A DNA stretch of 64,000 bases from Candidatus Harrisonbacteria bacterium (GTDB lineage: Bacteria; Patescibacteriota; Minisyncoccia; UBA6257; 1-14-0-10-44-23). The translations under genes and the position numbers were made by a program. The notes beneath the pieces are model-generated. The model ran no database searches. It saw nothing but the letters and a program-made list of their open reading frames with translations, and was not told the origin of the DNA. The stretch covers positions 290,965-354,964 of the forward strand of contig JAHFLF010000001.1 of assembly GCA_023255625.1 (NCBI GenBank), given 5' to 3'. Of this stretch, positions 17,909 through 46,377 are shown in pieces; the first letter of the stretch is position 1; each line of letters starts with the position of its first letter.

Positions 17909-17956
17909 AAATCCCTCCCGGCTACTGCCGTACTCCCTTTAGGAAAGGGAGAATAA
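17909..17956. repeat. REP/MITE-like element, identical to the copy at 17053-17100
   Basis: 48-nt identical copy AAATCCCTCCCGGCTACTGCCGTACTCCCTTTAGGAAAGGGAGAATAA. Confidence 0.85.
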
Positions 17957-17960
17957 TAAT

Positions 17961-18689
17961 ATGGACATTGAAACTGGTTTAAAAAATCTCGGCCTAAAAA
18001 AGTCAGAAATTGCGGTGTATCTATACCTTTTGCGCGCCGGCGCCTCTACGCCGCCGATGATTGCAAAGGGGACGGGAATAGCGCGCACCAACTGTTATCG
18101 CGTACTTACGGCGCTACACGAGAAGGAACTCATCCAAACACAGCCGCTACGCAAACGCCGGGCCTATTTTGTGCGCGACCCGGAGTCATTAGTTTCCGGA
18201 CTGGAGCGAAAAACAGAGTTTGCCCGTCAGATTGTGCCGGAGCTGCGGGATTTTTATACAACGCAAAAAAATAAACCGAAAATCCGCTTTTTTAGCGGCT
18301 GGGAGGAGGTCAAAGAGGTGTTTCGCCTAACACTTGAGGCCAAAAAATTGTTTGCGCTTGGATCAACTGAGACGCTAGCAAAGATTGACCGTAAATTTAT
18401 GGAGTGGCACTGGAACGAGATGCAAAAACGAAAAATTATCTTTGACGACATCCTAACGGCCGATGCAAAAGGGAAAACTGCAGAAGAAATCAAGAGCATC
18501 CGTGGCGCGCTCCAGACCGTCAGATTTCTGCCAGAACAATTCGGCGACCAACCCATGGACATCTTTATCTGGGACGACAATATCGCCTTTATGGCGCTTA
18601 GCGAGCCAATCTTCGCCACGCTCATCACCGACGCGCCGCTCGTCAAAGCAATCAAAATCATGCACCGGGCGCTGTGGGAAAAACTTTAG
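17961..18689 (+). CDS. TrmB-family transcriptional regulator (paralog 1 of 5)
   Basis: N-terminal wHTH (EIAVYLYLLRAGASTPPMIAKGTGIARTNCYRVLTAL) and TrmB-like C-domain. Paralogs at 23945, 33303, 49865 and 61190. Confidence 0.6.
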   Translation: MDIETGLKNLGLKKSEIAVYLYLLRAGASTPPMIAKGTGIARTNCYRVLTALHEKELIQTQPLRKRRAYFVRDPESLVSGLERKTEFARQIVPELRDFYTTQKNKPKIRFFSGWEEVKEVFRLTLEAKKLFALGSTETLAKIDRKFMEWHWNEMQKRKIIFDDILTADAKGKTAEEIKSIRGALQTVRFLPEQFGDQPMDIFIWDDNIAFMALSEPIFATLITDAPLVKAIKIMHRALWEKL

Positions 18690-18790
18690 GGGGCTTGCCA
18701 TTCGAAGCCTAACGTTGATTTACCGTAGAGTAGAGATAGCCCGTGCTTCGCTAAAGCTATGCAGGGCCATTCTCCGCCAAGGCGTAGAAT

Positions 18791-18863
18791 GGAGCGGGCG
18801 ACGGGAGTCGAACCCGTGGCTAGACCTTGGAAGGGTCTCGTATTACCGTTATACAACGCCCGC
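18791..18863 (-). tRNA. tRNA-Gly (anticodon TCC), CCA encoded
   Basis: rc reads GCGGGCG...anticodon loop CTTCCAA...T-loop GGTTCGACTCC...CGCCCGC-T-CCA. Confidence 0.8.
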
Positions 18864-19082
18864 GATAGAGCTAGTCTAACGAAAAATCAGCTTTGGGGCA
18901 ACTAAAAAGTCAGCCCCTAGGCCCGGTAGCATTTTTCGCTTTTTAAGCCATTCGCTTGCGATGAGCCCAGCAAAAAAAGTAAAAACTGCTACCGGACGCC
19001 TTGGGGTTGCAATTGCGGCTCACTTTCGCTACTATACCTCTACATAAATAAGGCATAATACTGCCTTATTTTTATTATAGAC

Positions 19083-19685
19083 ATGCTCAAAAATACCTCG
19101 CAAACAACCAAATGGGCTATCGGCAGTGCGGCTCTTGTCGTAGTTATCCTGCTCTATGTCCTCTGGGCAAACCCAAGCACCCCGCCAGCCGACTTTTTAG
19201 AGGCGCGGATTGCTGCTGTAGGTGCAGTGAACAACTTGGCGCAACTTGTCGATAACTCTCTGGCCAACTTAGAAAAAGTTGATACCTTCACCAAAAACGA
19301 AAATGATATCGAGGCACAAAATCTAATCGGTTTTGAATTCCAGCAACGCGCCGAAAAACAGAATGCGGCGCTCCGGCTGGCCCTACAGCTTGATCAGATG
19401 GCAAAAACCGCGCCGTCAATTAGATCATCTCGCGCTCGCACTTATGCAGTACAAAGTATTACGAGCGGCGTGGCCATGGTCTCCAGAATCATCAGCTACA
19501 ATAACAATCTCGACCAACTCTTTACGGCAATTCAGCAAAAAATCCAATACAAAAACCAGCCGAATCCAACCAATATCCGAGCTCTCTCTGCTAATCTTAA
19601 TGCCGACGCAAAAGCGATTAATGGATTGAGTAAGGAGTTTAATGACGCGCTCGCACAGTTTGATAAGGAGTACGGGATCAAGTAA
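19083..19685 (+). CDS. hypothetical protein with N-terminal TM anchor (200 aa)
   Basis: ORF with hydrophobic N-terminus. Confidence 0.5.
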   Translation: MLKNTSQTTKWAIGSAALVVVILLYVLWANPSTPPADFLEARIAAVGAVNNLAQLVDNSLANLEKVDTFTKNENDIEAQNLIGFEFQQRAEKQNAALRLALQLDQMAKTAPSIRSSRARTYAVQSITSGVAMVSRIISYNNNLDQLFTAIQQKIQYKNQPNPTNIRALSANLNADAKAINGLSKEFNDALAQFDKEYGIK

Positions 19686-19769
19686 TAATAGTTGGTTGGT
19701 TAATTAGTTAGTTGGTTGCTTAGTATAAAGCAATAAAACGGGCTATTATTATATAGAGGATTCAAAAAC

Positions 19770-19838
19770 GGAGAGTAGTATAATGGTAGTATACTTGCTT
19801 TGGGAGCAAGAAGTCCGAGTTCGATTCTCGGCTCTCCG
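19770..19838 (+). tRNA. tRNA-Pro (anticodon GGG)
   Basis: GGAGAGT acceptor, anticodon loop TTGGGAG, T-loop TTCGATT. Short D-arm. Confidence 0.65.
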
Positions 19839-19855
19839 ACACTTCAACCTGCTCA

Positions 19856-20257
19856 GTGCAAGCCAACACTCATATGAAATGGACTCCGAACGGCTTTCTG
19901 AAAATCTGTGGCCCCCTGATCTTTCTTGTCGGCCTTGCTGGTCTTTTTGGTTTTATCGGGCCGAGCTGGCGAGTTACTGAAGCTGACAATCTACTCCATG
20001 CAATAACCGGCTTTGTCATGTTTATTGCCGGGCTCACGCTGCCCGCGGCAACGCAAAAAAGGGTTACTATACTTTTTGGTATCGTGACGCTTGGTGTCGC
20101 GCTGTATATCATCACTGGGGTGCTCTTTGCTGATATACCATTTACTGAACCAGCAAACCTTATTGTCCACGCAGTTATCGCAACCTGGGCTCTGGCAGTC
20201 GGGGCGAGAAGATCTTCTGGCCTTATTGCGCAGCAAGCGGAGACAAAGGTATTATAG
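19856..20257 (+). CDS. small membrane protein (133 aa)
   Basis: Three or four hydrophobic helices. Confidence 0.5.
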   Translation: MQANTHMKWTPNGFLKICGPLIFLVGLAGLFGFIGPSWRVTEADNLLHAITGFVMFIAGLTLPAATQKRVTILFGIVTLGVALYIITGVLFADIPFTEPANLIVHAVIATWALAVGARRSSGLIAQQAETKVL

Positions 20258-20271
20258 TATTCATGCTCGCG

Positions 20272-20335
20272 TCCTCGTAGTTCAACTCCGACGCTCACAG
20301 TAGTAAGGTCGGAGCCCCGACCTACTGCGTCGGGG
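20272..20335. repeat. about 64-bp direct repeat, copy 1 (nested hairpin GACGC-tca-CAGTAG-AGGTCGG-agcc-CCGACCT-CTACTG-CGTC)
   Basis: Repeated at 20695-20758 with two mismatches. The two copies flank the GIY-YIG gene and tRNA-Arg. Confidence 0.8.
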
Positions 20336-20346
20336 TGAATAGAATT

Positions 20347-20613
20347 ATGATCGGATATGTTTACATATTGCGAGCTGCCGATGACCGCTTGTATGTCGGC
20401 AGCACCAGCAATTTAGAATATCGTATGCGCCAACACATAGCTGGTCATACGCAAACAACTCGCAATATGAAAAAATTTGCGCTTGTTTTTAAGCAAGAGA
20501 CGGCTAATTTGAAAATAGCCCGTGCTGCTGAACGAAAGCTCAAAAAACTAAAACGCAAGGATTACCTAGAAAAAATCATCAAAGACGGCTATATTAAGAT
20601 ATTACCCCCATAG
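20347..20613 (+). CDS. GIY-YIG nuclease superfamily protein (YhbQ/UPF0213-like)
   Basis: GYVYILRAADDRLYVGSTSNLEYRMRQH carries the GIY...YIG motif. The 3' end overlaps tRNA-Arg. Confidence 0.65.
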   Translation: MIGYVYILRAADDRLYVGSTSNLEYRMRQHIAGHTQTTRNMKKFALVFKQETANLKIARAAERKLKKLKRKDYLEKIIKDGYIKILPP

Positions 20614-20674
20614 TTCAATGGATAGAACAAAACTCTTCTAAGGTTTTGATGTAGGTTCGATTCCTACTGGGGGT
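20604..20674 (+). tRNA. tRNA-Arg (anticodon TCT)
   Basis: ACCCCCA acceptor, anticodon loop CTTCTAA, T-arm GTAGG-TTCGATT-CCTAC. Confidence 0.7.
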
Positions 20675-20694
20675 ACAAAATGATAAGATTGGGT

Positions 20695-20758
20695 AGTTCA
20701 ACTCCGACGCTCACAGTAGTGAGGTCGGAGCCCCGACCTACTGCGTCTGGGTGGATAA
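20695..20758. repeat. about 64-bp direct repeat, copy 2
   Basis: See 20272-20335. Confidence 0.8.
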
Positions 20759-20808
20759 GACAAGGGGTTTCTAACCCCTCAATCTAGGTTCGATTCCTAG
20801 CGGGGACA
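20757..20808 (+). other. tRNA-like 3' fragment (anticodon-arm-like AGGGG-TTTCTAA-CCCCT, T-arm CTAGG-TTCGATT-CCTAG, CGGGGAC-A-CCA) with no adjacent 5' half
   Basis: Canonical T-loop and encoded CCA. The only candidate 5' acceptor strand (GTCCTCG) lies at 20274-20280, immediately before repeat copy 1. Confidence 0.4.
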
Positions 20809-20868
20809 CCATGGATAGTTAATCGGTTAGTCAGTTAGTTGGTTAGTTGGTAAAACGAAAAACTAATT

Positions 20869-21354
20869 ATGCAAAAAGGTGTTGATTTCATCGGCGTATC
20901 GGTTTCGTACTTTTGCCACGACGGCAAGGGGAATTATTTATTCCAAAAACGGGGATCCGGGGCTCGCGATGAGAACGGCAAGTGGGACTGTGGTGGCGGG
21001 GGATTGGAGTTCGGCCAAACAGTCGAGGAGTGCCTGAAGGCGGAAGTCAAAGAGGAATACTGCGCTGATATTTTGGATTCGGAATTCATTGGATACTACG
21101 AGGCATTTCGTACTATCAAAACACAAAATCCCTCACCGCAAGGCGGTCCCCTCCCTTTAGAAAAGGGAGAAGGAAAGCCAACGCACTGGATTGCTCTCCA
21201 CTTTAAAGTCTTGGTTGATCCAAAACAGGTCAAGAATGGAGAGCCGCACAAGTTTGACGAGATTAAATGGTTCCGACTTGATAATTTACCGCCAGCATCA
21301 GAACTTCACTCACAGCTGCCGGCGGAGATTGAGAGGTATAGGGGGAAATTGTGA
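20869..21354 (+). CDS. NUDIX hydrolase carrying an in-frame REP-like repeat insertion
   Basis: Nudix box GGGGLEFGQTVEECLKAEVKEEYC. Residues NPSPQGGPLPLEKGEGK are encoded by a copy of the repeat family at 21126-21172. Confidence 0.65.
   Translation: MQKGVDFIGVSVSYFCHDGKGNYLFQKRGSGARDENGKWDCGGGGLEFGQTVEECLKAEVKEEYCADILDSEFIGYYEAFRTIKTQNPSPQGGPLPLEKGEGKPTHWIALHFKVLVDPKQVKNGEPHKFDEIKWFRLDNLPPASELHSQLPAEIERYRGKL
21126..21172. repeat. REP/MITE-like element inserted in frame in the NUDIX gene
   Basis: AAATCCCTCACCGCAAGGCGGTCCCCTCCCTTTAGAAAAGGGAGAAGG. Confidence 0.7.
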
Positions 21355-26932: not shown

Positions 26933-27275
26933 GACAATAAATGATTGGAATAAGTGAGAAGCGCAGATTTTGATGCAGTTCTAGGCGCGGGAGGGCGGTT
27001 TGTGAGCCGTACTTTTATATAAGTACGGTGAGCAAACCGACGGGACCCGCAACAACGAACTGCTCAAAATATGCATTTCTCACACACAATAACTCTGTAG
27101 TTGCCCCAAATTACGATTCCGGTTCTTGCGATTCCTCCGAAGGAGGATCCGCCTATGGCGGAAAAGTGTCGTGACTTAGAGCTCCACGACCAACACTCTT
27201 TTTCTATCAATCCAGTATATAAATATACTGAAGTGTCGCTTTTTCCTAATCTCCATTTACAGAGAAAGAAAAAAG

Positions 27276-29180
<1,905 letters not shown>

Positions 29181-29630
29181 TAATAAGTAATTTGAAATTC
29201 ATCTAGCCGAAGCCAGATGAATAACAAACACTCTTGTTTTGGGACAACTACACAATTATTGTTGCATACTTTATATCTGCTTGAAGGATATAAAGATTTT
29301 GATTTCCTAATCATTCATTTATCTTTATAGTTTTTAGTATCTTTCGATACAAACATTTTCAAAGAACGAAAGGTATACTCAATTCACTTTTTGAAGTGAA
29401 AATAATACACCCGTCTCGGCGACCTATCGTATGATCTGCAATACGACGACGAGACGGATGCGCTGGTCTGATATATGTTTTTCCGCCAGAGGCGGATCCG
29501 CCTTCGGCGGACAATTTGTACGAATTTCGCGGGATGTTTCGCTGGTTCGTTTGTACTGCCTTAAGCCAGTACTAATGTGGCTTCTAGTATAGTCGACCGA
29601 ATAATAAAGTCAAGACCTTATTAACGAAGC

Positions 29631-36300: not shown

Positions 36301-36447
36301 GATTCTCCCTTTCCTAAAGGGAGTACTCCGACGTTACGTCGGAGGGAGGGATTTAAGTCCTCCAAAAAACCAATTGATTCGCAGACCCGGCTTTTCTTAT
36401 TCTCCCTTTCCTAAAGGGAGTACCGCCACTAGGCGGGGAGGGATTTT
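36301..36447. repeat. two tandem REP/MITE-like elements (36301-36355 and 36396-36447) at the left border of the largest GC-rich island
   Basis: GATTCTCCCTTTCCTAAAGGGAGTA-CTCCGACGTTACGTCGGAG-GGAGGGATTT and CTTATTCTCCCTTTCCTAAAGGGAGTA-CCGCCACTAGGCGG-GGAGGGATTTT. The central hairpins differ but keep their pairing. Confidence 0.8.
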
Positions 36448-45028: not shown

Positions 45029-45317
45029 AATGGGAAAGGGATAATTAAAATAATAAAATTTTCGATGAAGAAAAAATATGCACTGGAAATCATCAGGAAT
45101 TTTTTCGTTCCTCAATTCTACTCCCCGTTCTCAAGACCTGGCAAGAGTGGATAACTCAAAAATGTTCAAGCTAAAAAAGATTTTTAACAAGTGTCAACGA
45201 CGCCAACCTAAAAATCGCTTCACAAACCAAAAAATCAGCTCCGCGGGGCTGATTTTTTGGGCCTTTTTCTTAGTTTCGACCAATTAACCAACTAACCAAC
45301 TAACTGATGAACTAATT

Positions 45318-45675
45318 CTGGTGCCGCGGGTCAGAATCGAACTGACAACCACTTCCTCTTCCAAGGATATTCTCTGCATTACTGCAAAGTTTGGACTATA
45401 TCATCTCCCCAGAGGGGAGTCGGGCGCTATCTGCGAGGTTATTGTTGGGACTCACTCGCTAGTCTCTACACCTGCCTCCGCTAAAGCTACTGCAGGCAAG
45501 CCTTCTTCAACGATTTGGCTTGCTTGCAATCCGTAGCCTCCCGGCGAAGGATTGGCTCGGGATTTTCCTCTCACAAGGAGTTCCCCCGAATTCACCCAAT
45601 TATTCAATCCATATTACTATGGAAGGCCCCAAAGAGTTATCAATAGGGAAATGCTCTACCATTGAGCTACCGCGG
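45318..45675 (-). tRNA. tRNA-Phe (anticodon GAA) interrupted by a 283-nt group I intron between U33 and G34 (exons 45644-45675 and 45318-45360)
   Basis: Exon 1 GCCGCGGTAGCTCAATGGTAGAGCATTTCCCT. Exon 2 GAAGAGGAAGTGGTTGTCAGTTCGATTCTGACCCGCGGCACCA. Intron carries group I R-like (TAGAGACTAG) and S-like (GATATAGTCC) elements, a GGGG internal guide, and ends in G. Confidence 0.7.
45361..45643 (-). mobile_element. group I intron within the tRNA-Phe anticodon loop, with no homing-endonuclease ORF
   Basis: See the tRNA-Phe entry. The 5' exon ends in U and the 3' exon follows a G. Confidence 0.6.
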
Positions 45676-46377
45676 CAGCGGCGCGAACTGCTTCAAACCC
45701 TCAATCCACCCCATAATTTTATAGAACAGTTGAGTATTGTTGATTCTAATTTGAATGACCCCAAAAGGCAAGCGATTAAAGGGTCTTTTACCTTTGCTAG
45801 ATAAACTTACGAAAATATGCACTTTGCCAAAACGACTCTTGGGAATCTTAGTAATCTTTGACCAATAACTAATTGCTTCATCTTCTTGAATATGTTTAAA
45901 GATTCTTAAATCTGCAGTGATCTTTTCTTCTGGTACATTGCAAATCTCGCGGATAAATCTTAGAAACATCTGCACCAACAACGGATCAGAATTTGTAAGA
46001 CTTATTGAGTGTGCTGTTATTTCACGACCCTTAACTTTTCTCACTCTTTTATAACCTTCCGCCCAGTAAAGCGCGATTCCGACAATAAACAAATTTTCTC
46101 TTGATACCTCACGAATCTCAGATTGAGCCAATTCCAAAATATCATCTCTCCGCTTAATGGCTAGGGCTGTCTGCTCCTTATTTCTTTTTATAAAACCAGC
46201 AAGGGATTTTTCGCGGCTCCGGACTGCAATTTTTTTCCGGGCCTCATCAGAAAGGGGAACTTCTTTCAACCATAAAGAAAGGGTTGATTTAGAAATCCCT
46301 AGCAACAGTTTTTGAATCTGACCATAACTCAGACCTTCTAACCTCAACTGAATCGCACGATTTTTATCTTTCCTCAT
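45667..46377 (-). CDS. hypothetical HTH-domain protein (236 aa) immediately upstream of, and slightly overlapping, tRNA-Phe
   Basis: N-terminal GLSYGQIQKLLGISKSTLSLWLKE HTH. Basic. Function unknown. Confidence 0.45.
   Translation of the reverse strand: MRKDKNRAIQLRLEGLSYGQIQKLLLGISKSTLSLWLKEVPLSDEARKKIAVRSREKSLAGFIKRNKEQTALAIKRRDDILELAQSEIREVSRENLFIVGIALYWAEGYKRVRKVKGREITAHSISLTNSDPLLVQMFLRFIREICNVPEEKITADLRIFKHIQEDEAISYWSKITKIPKSRFGKVHIFVSLSSKGKRPFNRLPFGVIQIRINNTQLFYKIMGWIEGLKQFAPLPR

Follow-up and report, generated by a model that had tools for sequence, protein, structure and literature searches.

A tRNA-nested GIY-YIG cassette with twin palindromic hairpins at a probably split tRNA-Arg gene of a Candidate Phyla Radiation bacterium

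Bacteriophage T4 encodes SegB, a free-standing GIY-YIG homing endonuclease whose gene lies in the phage tRNA gene cluster (PMC2330249). SegB recognises a conserved tRNA-gene sequence, a 27-bp site with a T-arm motif, and spreads its own gene and the neighbouring tRNA genes by break repair (PMC2330249). Here we describe a bacterial locus in which a small GIY-YIG nuclease gene, an intact tRNA-Arg(UCU) gene and two copies of a palindromic twin hairpin stand between what appear to be the two pieces of a second tRNA-Arg(UCU). It occupies positions 20271–20811 of a 64,000-nucleotide stretch, hereafter the window, from a Candidatus Harrisonbacteria bacterium (contig JAHFLF010000001.1, positions 290,965 to 354,964), a member of the Candidate Phyla Radiation (CPR), or Patescibacteria.

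Other known systems recall parts of this arrangement. Rickettsia palindromic elements (RPEs) are reportedly selfish palindromes that reside inside genes, and we know of no nuclease partner for them. In Allomyces mitochondria, a GIY-YIG open reading frame (ORF) is said to insert in a gene and bring a replacement for part of it, the resident part being left as a remnant; double-hairpin elements are reportedly scattered there as well. RPE-4 and RPE-6 are mentioned in PMC3733652, and CGTC-tagged repetitive extragenic palindromic (REP) sequences have no known dedicated enzyme according to Di Nocera et al. (among PMC3116915, PMC3337134 and PMC3733652).

We propose that the resident tRNA-Arg(UCU), tRNA 'B', was split by a tRNA-nested GIY-YIG cassette of the homing type, which brought a replacement with it, the intact tRNA 'A'. 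We hold this to be probable, with moderate confidence. On the best reading, the orphan tRNA 3' half is a dead remnant and not the end of a tRNA with a giant intron. The cassette is apparently undescribed, and it adjoins tRNA genes across the CPR: we found no description of it in the open-access literature, including a recent survey of tRNA introns in Patescibacteria (PMC13011429). With the two copies of the direct repeat numbered 1 and 2, the locus reads as follows in window coordinates.

20271–20285, + strand: 5' fragment of resident tRNA-Arg(UCU) 'B', gene positions 1–15, namely GTCCTCG (20271–20277), U8 A9, the D-stem 5' strand GTTC, and AA; it pairs with 20801–20807 and contributes to a composite cloverleaf.
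20286–20335, no strand assigned: twin hairpin copy 1, dyad-symmetric; hairpin 1 is CTCCGAC (20286–20292) with GTCGGAG (20308–20314), hairpin 2 is CCCCGAC (20315–20321) with GTCGGGG (20329–20335).
20336–20345, + strand: tRNA D-loop continuation and D-stem 3' strand, TGAATAGAAT, aligned to tRNA positions 16–25; the ATG follows one base later, an arrangement common to the family.
20347–20613, + strand: GIY-YIG nuclease gene, 88 amino acids (ORF list; Pfam PF01541); its TAG stop (20611–20613) is U8-A9-G10 of the next tRNA.
20604–20676, + strand: cassette-borne intact tRNA-Arg(UCU) 'A' (ARAGORN; Rfam RF00005, 70.7 bits); acceptor ACCCCCA/TGGGGGT, CCA not encoded.
20677–20692, + strand: spacer of 16 nt (from the sequence).
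20693–20701, + strand: second copy of tRNA positions 7–15, GTAGTTCAA, placed by the repeat register; no acceptor 5' strand precedes it, the upstream GATTGGG not pairing with CGGGGAC.
20702–20751, no strand assigned: twin hairpin copy 2; in hairpin 2 a pair is lost through G to T at 20748, and A to G at 20721 completes an extension of hairpin 1.
20752–20811, + strand: 3' part of resident tRNA 'B', comprising the D-loop remainder, D-stem 3' strand, anticodon arm AGGGG-UUUCUAA-CCCCU, T arm, CGGGGAC, discriminator A and encoded CCA.
20815–20860, + strand: TTAGTTGG-type repeat tract after the 3' end of the resident tRNA (repeat family D3; motif search).

A first-pass annotation of the window had drawn attention to this locus. 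What it observed is confirmed as real, and its interpretation is partly supported. It had placed direct repeats with two mismatches at 20272–20335 and 20695–20758. The repeat stands, but those intervals are 7 nt out of register: a repeat search of the window gives 20277–20341 and 20693–20757, 65 nt at 95% identity, with three mismatches and a spacing of 416. The 44-nt core of the repeat has exactly two matches in the window, against 0.00 expected from 100 shuffles. Between the repeats lie, as first described, the GIY-YIG gene and tRNA-Arg(TCT), with the TAG stop falling on tRNA positions 8–10 (Pfam, Rfam and ARAGORN); tRNA 'A' starts within the last codons of the gene.

Both repeats prove to be tRNA D-arms, interrupted between gene positions 15 and 16 by a foreign block of 50 nt. 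Read against the neighbouring tRNA, copy 1 runs GTCCTCG-UA-GUUC-AA, the 50-nt block, UGAAUAGAAU; copy 2 runs G-UA-GUUC-AA, the 50-nt block, UGGAUAAGAC-A-AGGGG and onwards. The D-arm halves, GTTC..AA and TGGATAAGAC, flank the hairpin inside the repeat. The first reading had found no D-arm nearby, having overlooked it because the hairpin block splits it. That the D-arm lies within the repeat, and that the hairpin is a member of a widespread family of repeats, goes beyond that reading.

The tRNA 3' half with encoded CCA had been recognised correctly (20752–20811), as had its only matching 5' strand some 480 nt away. This strand, GTCCTCG at 20271–20277, forms seven of seven pairs, one of them G-U, with CGGGGAC at 20801–20807. 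It is the sole complementary 5' strand and differs from the acceptor of tRNA 'A'. When the pieces are joined with the 416-nt unit and the hairpin block removed, as had been suggested, ARAGORN accepts the composite as a cloverleaf tRNA-Arg(UCU). Judged by these pairings, GTCCTCG and the 3' part appear to be two pieces of one former tRNA-Arg(UCU).

On the native sequence, the intron mode of ARAGORN, whose intron search is limited to the anticodon loop, returned only the intact tRNA and a D-armless mis-call. The mis-call, a 'tRNA' at 20745–20811 (ARAGORN) or 20808 (Rfam, 32.8 bits against a threshold of 29), is not a conventional tRNA: a part of the hairpin is used as the acceptor strand, the D-arm is skipped and two positions of the acceptor stem do not pair. 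This call is an artefact of the remnant.

The architecture is conserved well beyond the window. We surveyed 80 loci from species-representative genomes in a GTDB-wide sample (81 with the window), in assemblies almost all labelled CPR or Patescibacteria. The only gene common to the 80 loci is the GIY-YIG ORF. A tRNA follows it on the same strand in 77 of 80, its start lying −6 to +174 nt from where the protein match ends; tRNA-Arg is the commonest, and Thr, Phe, Val, Ile, Asn, Ala and Pro types also occur. Among the three exceptions, one contig ends 59 nt past the ORF and one carries a hairpin-bearing tRNA invisible to ARAGORN. The ORF is preceded by a copy of a tRNA 5' part, which in many cases agrees fully with the downstream tRNA, a few leader bases included. 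Two assemblies hold two cassette copies, at different tRNAs.

The twin hairpin interrupts the upstream tRNA copy in 71 of the 81 loci, and in 68 of these it ends 6–46 nt before the start codon. No further twin hairpin was found outside the cassette neighbourhood at E ≤ 0.001 in about 239 kb of surveyed loci; the link between hairpin and nuclease is therefore specific, not a matter of chance. Where a downstream tRNA allowed the flanks to be parsed (69 loci), they are contiguous tRNA in 46, with at most two mismatches over 14 nt, and thus no tRNA bases were lost or duplicated. The insertion point among these 46 is after position 15/16 in 23 loci, 10/11 in 18, and 22, 7 or 5 in a few.

A split resident gene shows in a signature that we defined as follows: upstream positions 1–7 pair perfectly with the 3' acceptor strand of the downstream, hairpin-bearing remnant and not with the intact tRNA in between. 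Besides the window, three loci bear it: L042 (GCGCCTG pairs with CAGGCGC, the intervening tRNA having GCGCGCG), L025 (GCCCTCG with CGAGGGC) and L082 (GGGCCAG with CTGGCCC). In all four, the intervening tRNA has the anticodon of the split one. This implies that an incoming segment landed in a resident tRNA and brought its replacement. The proposal, already made in the first-pass annotation, that a GIY-YIG mobile cassette disrupted a tRNA gene fits the complementarity of the outer pieces in the window, its recurrence in L042, L025 and L082, and the arrangement shared by some 80 loci.

Other loci look like later stages of the same process, forming a putative decay series. Remnants without a matching 5' strand occur in L016 and L081, the latter with two stacked remnants; L018 has a truncated remnant with the hairpin in the anticodon loop, and L039 a hybrid tRNA. 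Units without an ORF are found between ORF and tRNA, one of which (L074) retains the last 12 codons of the nuclease. Upstream fragments unlike their downstream tRNA occur in the window and in L028; together with the hybrid tRNA of L039, they hint indirectly at possible cleavage of cassette-free alleles with co-conversion of the flanks.

A relative offers a comparison at the same site. L092/L093 share the gene order of the window: TrmB, tRNA-Gly, tRNA-Pro, membrane proteins, tRNA-Arg(UCU) and Nudix, the Nudix protein being 74% identical. Their syntenic tRNA-Arg(UCU) site has no nuclease gene, and tRNA-Arg fragments follow the intact tRNA. Closer Nudix homologues in L090 and L091 (84% and 82% identical) have no tRNA nearby and were of no help for this comparison. 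As a side observation, L092 carries at 2160–2490 a 3' tRNA fragment and a tRNA-Arg(UCU)-like copy with a D-loop insert of about 62 nt that is not of the CCGAC type. These pieces of L092 resemble scars that other invasions left in the same gene.

The twin hairpin consists of two abutting hairpins, each NN-CCGAC-loop-GTCGG-N'N', and measures 50 nt in the window. Its five core pairs are nearly invariant, and the two outer pairs of each hairpin covary, with four to five standard pair types each. In an alignment of 150 covariance-model matches, 99.4% of cells are paired and double-sided changes number 287, where shuffles give 70.6 and none of 500 is as high; no slid register comes close either. An independent parse, unfiltered for outer-pair complementarity, gives at least 86% Watson-Crick outer pairs. 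The first base of loop 1 is G in 62 of 71 loci and the last base of loop 2 is C in 61 of 71, so that the motif reads alike on both strands. Counts on the sense strand, taken to separate an RNA from a DNA role, were 24 for G-U against 14 for A-C, a mild excess of G-U.

Within the window, both copies fold better than shuffles (z = −4.7 for copy 1 and −3.9 for copy 2). Our covariance model, R1, scores copy 1 at 44.6 bits on the plus and 45.0 bits on the minus strand (E about 1e-8). Copy 2 reaches 32.5/32.8 bits with a non-pair flagged, its score being lower because the G-to-T change at 20748 breaks a pair. A search of the 64 kb with R1 finds just these two twin copies, plus one single hairpin. 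The first annotation had drawn the repeat as one nested hairpin. That is indeed the minimum-energy fold of copy 1, but covariation in the family favours two hairpins side by side; we rejected the nested fold for the family, in which cross-hairpin pairing of the outer positions gives only 33 Watson-Crick and 9 G-U pairs in 142 cells.

Longer loops are themselves small hairpins, at times of the CCGAC type. Hairpins of this type nested in the loops of other copies were seen in L064 and in the upstream regions of L020, L029, L037, L040 and L089; in L064, at about 1920–2030, they make up a short tandem array of single hairpins within a tRNA-Phe remnant, which suggests repeated self-insertion.

The same element occurs alone in CPR-like metagenome contigs. 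Scanning metagenome contigs for the hairpin pattern (120 loci, L095–L214), we obtained 86 matches with complementary outer pairs and 38 chance-like ones; clearly high-GC contigs among those listed are chance-like. Long open frames contain 57 of the 86, with a length divisible by three in 35 of the 57. Pfam places read-through insertions in the C-terminal region of GyrB, in GatA, in the hinge of L7/L12 and in the C-terminal domain of GyrA. Individual in-frame copies were noted at L105 6941–6994, L166 2525–2566, L188 1985–2029, L157 4666–4707 and L106 1564–1614, in GyrB, GatA, L7/L12, GyrA and a UvrA-like protein; they add 13–20 residues, for example APTFQSEPRPEGVG. By analogy, such in-frame insertion is RPE-like behaviour, of which we found no report for CPR bacteria.

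The flanks of the 86 hairpins show a preference, reading outwards, for Y-T-R-A (C/T in 77% at position 1, T in 54% at position 2, G/A in 74% at position 3, A in 47% at position 4), and no target-site duplication was found at them. The tRNA D-arm sites fit this preference: TAG|CTCAG, CTCAG|TTGG and TTCAA|YGGA. Hairpins near tRNAs lie in copied tRNA fragments beside an intact tRNA. Two dispersed copies occur in single metagenome loci in five cases (L109, L156, L161, L190 and L211).

The 88-residue protein matches Pfam PF01541 with E = 6.6e-14 (52.4 bits, cut-off 22.6). Profile matches in the PDB are to UPF0213 (closest), followed by Slx1 and the catalytic domain of I-TevI; UvrC also matches. Intact ORFs are present in 74 of the 81 loci. 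All 74 of these have Y6, Y16, G18 and R26, and 73 have H30 and E62, so that the catalytic Tyr, Tyr, Arg, His and Glu of the GIY-YIG superfamily are all conserved. Together with a median dN/dS of 0.30, this points to ORFs under purifying selection, and the nuclease looks functional. The family has its own basic C-terminal motif, KKLKRKDY.

Homologues fall into 193 clusters in a word-indexed search and 704 clusters at 50% identity (E ≤ 1e-10) in an exhaustive one, and the nearest are labelled Patescibacteria or Parcubacteria. For 51 of 74 proteins, the nearest protein neighbour adjoins a tRNA that carries the same amino acid, where 24% would be expected. NCBIfam, PHROGs and PADLOC gave weak generic GIY-YIG matches only, and neither a family name nor a defence system for the protein; a viral collection gave one distant match, without an adjoining tRNA.

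We now propose how the locus could have arisen. In order, the cassette comprises the twin hairpin, the rest of the D-arm, the GIY-YIG gene, tRNA 'A', the 16-nt spacer, and a second D-arm with twin hairpin. The nuclease would break DNA at or near a hairpin-bearing D-arm or a related site, and recombination repair would use tRNA sequence and the D-arm of about 65 nt with its hairpin as homology. A segment made of the rest of the D-arm, the ORF, its own tRNA, the spacer and the D-arm with hairpin would thus be copied or integrated, much as with a free-standing homing endonuclease. Copying from a circular or tandem donor, or a crossover with a hairpin-bearing D-arm, would yield two flanking repeats as observed. 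Early capture would leave the hairpin only, and deletion between short D-arm repeats would produce the ORF-less units.

The outcome for the resident gene would be positions 1–15 upstream and 16–76 with CCA downstream, about 480 nt apart and no longer a working gene, with the intact tRNA of the cassette supplying the isoacceptor. Because the cassette would carry or regenerate an intact tRNA, a hit on an essential gene could be tolerated and the insertion need not be lethal. Judging from general tRNA biology, the tRNA promoter probably drives transcription of the cassette, and RNase P would then cut it apart from the tRNA. Scans for sigma-70 promoters and terminators around the cassette did no better than chance.

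Several results weigh against such a history. A second hairpin copy needs either a hairpin-bearing resident tRNA or a circular or tandem template, neither of which was observed, and mobility itself is inferred from sequence. No near-identical pair of strains with and without the cassette was found, and two metagenome scans (an exact 38-nt search with the 3' part of the resident tRNA) returned no other alleles of the locus. The protein consists of the catalytic domain alone and lacks the DNA-binding domain through which known GIY-YIG homing endonucleases reach a long target. Identity among the closest cassette proteins is about 63–86%, and between copies in one assembly 54–58%; by these sequence distances, the cassettes appear to be old, target-faithful lineages and not recent intragenomic jumps. 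The hairpin, for its part, exists independently of the nuclease: in 80 metagenome loci that were found through the hairpin and searched for the gene, just one of 83 pattern matches, about 65 of them true hairpins by outer-pair complementarity, lies directly upstream of a GIY-YIG gene. A hairpin deletion test found a solo hairpin in an otherwise complete tRNA in 0 of 67 cases, although one version of the insertion model requires such a state. Finally, purifying selection and fidelity to a single tRNA type suit a domesticated gene equally well.

A bolder reading would make the GIY-YIG protein the dedicated nuclease of the whole twin-hairpin family, in a partnership like that of REPINs and their RAYTs (REP-associated tyrosine transposases) that does without a tyrosine transposase. 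It would recognise the dyad-symmetric CCGACG...CGTCGG doublet and cut at short sites of the Y-T-R-A type. Both kinds of copy would be seeded in this way: the solo hairpins, with the in-frame ones of gyrB, gatA, rplL and gyrA among them, and tRNA-nested master copies, which would survive through their spare tRNA. We put this forward tentatively, as possible and well short of probable.

Rather doubtful is a domesticated host nuclease whose transcript starts at a tRNA promoter and is freed when RNase P cuts at the downstream tRNA, with the tRNA fragment and hairpin as its 5' leader and the partial tRNAs as ordinary by-products of duplication. Such a leader could control translation or stabilise the mRNA, and the 3' arm of hairpin 2, GTCGGAG/GGG/GGA, resembles a ribosome-binding site some 6–20 nt before the start. 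Purifying selection on conserved catalytic residues, old lineages that track tRNA type, the short and fixed distance from hairpin to start codon, the fusion of the ORF stop to the tRNA 5' end and the breadth of the family (about 704 clusters at 50% identity, E ≤ 1e-10) all suit it. It leaves unexplained, however, the four split-resident loci, the stacked remnants and ORF-less units, the divergent copies at different tRNAs in one genome and the absence at the syntenic site of the relative. In addition, the two strands of the hairpin score alike and the excess of G-U over A-C (24 against 14) is small, which lends weak support to a role in RNA only.

Doubtful as well, and slightly more so, is a hot spot driven by the palindrome. 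Here an independent REP- or RPE-like element would have invaded tRNA D-arms and promoted duplications, deletions and exchanges, with the GIY-YIG gene as a passenger. Twin hairpins commonly stand alone, with no link to the nuclease gene, they share the Y-T-R-A flank preference with the tRNA D-arm sites, and the relative L092 has tRNA-Arg scars without a nuclease gene. Against it, the hairpin stands upstream of 71 of 81 nuclease genes, within 46 nt of the start codon in 68, with none elsewhere at E ≤ 0.001 in about 239 kb, and the nuclease is conserved under selection; nor would a mere passenger be joined to the tRNA with such precision in so many lineages.

A functional split or intron-bearing tRNA is very unlikely. 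It supposes that a transcript of 20271–20811 is processed, the hairpin modules pairing with each other, to give a second working tRNA-Arg(UCU). In its favour, joining the pieces without what lies between them gives a valid cloverleaf, both the anticodon arm and the T arm of the 3' part are intact and its CCA is encoded, and the hairpin arms of copies 1 and 2 could in principle pair mutually. Yet the interval gave no signature of a group I or group II intron or of any other ribozyme, nor any other Rfam family, and there is no intron match at E ≤ 10 in 19600–21000, although the same library detects the true group I intron at 45372–45644. The hairpin shows no bulge-helix-bulge geometry, as both bulges lie on one strand. 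The stem of copy 2 is broken, the interval itself contains an intact tRNA of the same anticodon, and remnants elsewhere lack a 5' strand (L016, L081) or are truncated (L018). The element is also read through in GyrB, GatA, L7/L12 and GyrA, with 35 of 57 lengths divisible by three; a hairpin kept in frame is translated and therefore not removed from RNA, which argues against its being spliced from the tRNA pieces. The unusually large tRNA intron once suggested for this locus thus finds no support.

Least likely of all, and hardly credible, is an attachment-site duplication left by an integrase-type tRNA-targeting element, the integration scar of the earlier list: direct repeats do flank a small insert within a tRNA gene, and in L005, L008 and L009 the cassette is followed, at about 0.8 kb, by serine recombinase genes, but the 416-nt interval holds the GIY-YIG ORF and tRNA only, no recombinase gene stands in it or beside the window repeats (ORF list), the repeat is a D-arm with a palindrome and not a tRNA 3' end, and the sole gene common to the 80 loci is the GIY-YIG ORF.

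Some further observations concern the window itself. The TTAGTTGG-type tract occurs also at 19688–19733 and at 45284–45303 on the minus strand, and a motif search of the window with TTAGTTGGTTAG gave 3 matches against 0.15 expected. Stop codons abound in all frames of these tracts, which lie downstream of one ORF end and of two CCA-ending tRNA gene ends; they may be an end-of-unit signal. The single hairpin of the twin-hairpin family is at 36324–36344 (CTCCGAC-GTTAC-GTCGGAG; 16 bits, E = 0.05), with a second small hairpin adjoining it, and is possibly a half-element. A group I intron at 45372–45644 (Rfam, 60.9 bits) lies within the anticodon loop of a CCA-encoding tRNA gene at about 45319–45676 on the minus strand, which the intron mode of ARAGORN reads as tRNA-Asn-like with a 283-nt intron. 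The 16S rRNA gene (27274–29184, minus strand) measures 1911 nt against a model of 1533 positions and so has about 380 nt of extra sequence; extra insertions are common in CPR rRNA genes. Together with the group I intron and the Patescibacteria or Parcubacteria labels of the nearest homologues, this gene marks the window as DNA of a CPR-type bacterium. The intron at 45372–45644 matches a class recently described for Patescibacteria (PMC13011429).

An independent assembly, Logan contig L001, is identical to 17927–20667 of the window and stops at 20667, inside tRNA 'A' and just short of repeat copy 2, a known effect of a 65-nt repeat on short-read assemblers. An exact-protein look-up of the window nuclease found one short contig only, ending at the repeat. 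Such cassettes are probably under-assembled in metagenomes.

The cassette accounts for several confusing calls in CPR genomes, namely orphan tRNA halves, D-armless 'tRNAs' above the Rfam threshold and duplicated tRNA 5' ends, and it provides rules by which to recognise them. Its design would be that of a compact selfish element: a nuclease gene inside a tRNA gene, with U8-A9-G10 of the tRNA as its stop codon and a replacement tRNA that lets the host survive. The twin hairpin is a phylum-wide palindromic repeat, found in frame in essential genes, and bears on the annotation and structure prediction of CPR proteins. Its link with the nuclease is a testable candidate for what moves palindromic repeats that lack a transposase.

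How does this locus compare with known systems? The closest solved proteins are of the UPF0213 or YhbQ type (PDB 1zg2, E = 6e-11; 1ywl, E = 4e-9). The cassette protein is of the same size class, with a single GIY-YIG domain; unlike them, it has low identity and its own KKLKRKDY motif. The UPF0213 family is not known to us to be linked with tRNAs or with a hairpin module.

As in the REPIN/RAYT system and REP doublets (PMC3116915, PMC3337134, PMC3733652), the twin hairpin is made of short conserved palindromes in an inverted doublet, and a nuclease gene is flanked by copies. Unlike in that system, the linked gene encodes a GIY-YIG nuclease and not a RAYT, an HUH tyrosine transposase, and it is nested at a tRNA. 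CGTC lies in the stem of the twin hairpin, whereas CGTC REPs have an unpaired tag and stems of 8–9 bp starting with A-T. As to abundance, the window has two copies and one half-copy in 64 kb, and some metagenome loci have two dispersed copies. The twin hairpin may work like a REPIN system, without being a member of it.

With RPEs, the twin hairpin shares its presence in frame in housekeeping genes (GyrB, GatA, L7/L12 and GyrA) and in RNA genes. It differs in being shorter (about 36–70 nt), of another sequence, in another phylum and linked to a nuclease. The resemblance to Allomyces is a lead and not a test: that case is mitochondrial, and its target is the protein gene atp6.

Altogether, the closest functional parallel to the cassette appears, by analogy, to be a free-standing GIY-YIG homing endonuclease of a tRNA cluster. 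Its ORF stands outside any intron or intein, between the pieces of a tRNA, and no intron model matches there. It differs from SegB in that the protein is an 88-residue catalytic domain, without a DNA-binding domain for a long target, and in that the disrupted site is the D-arm. The conserved twin hairpin and the duplicated tRNA 5' fragment are not reported for SegB, and the host is a CPR bacterium instead of a phage. As with SegB, a GIY-YIG gene sits among tRNA genes outside an intron, and the ORF appears to travel with a tRNA that replaces the resident copy.

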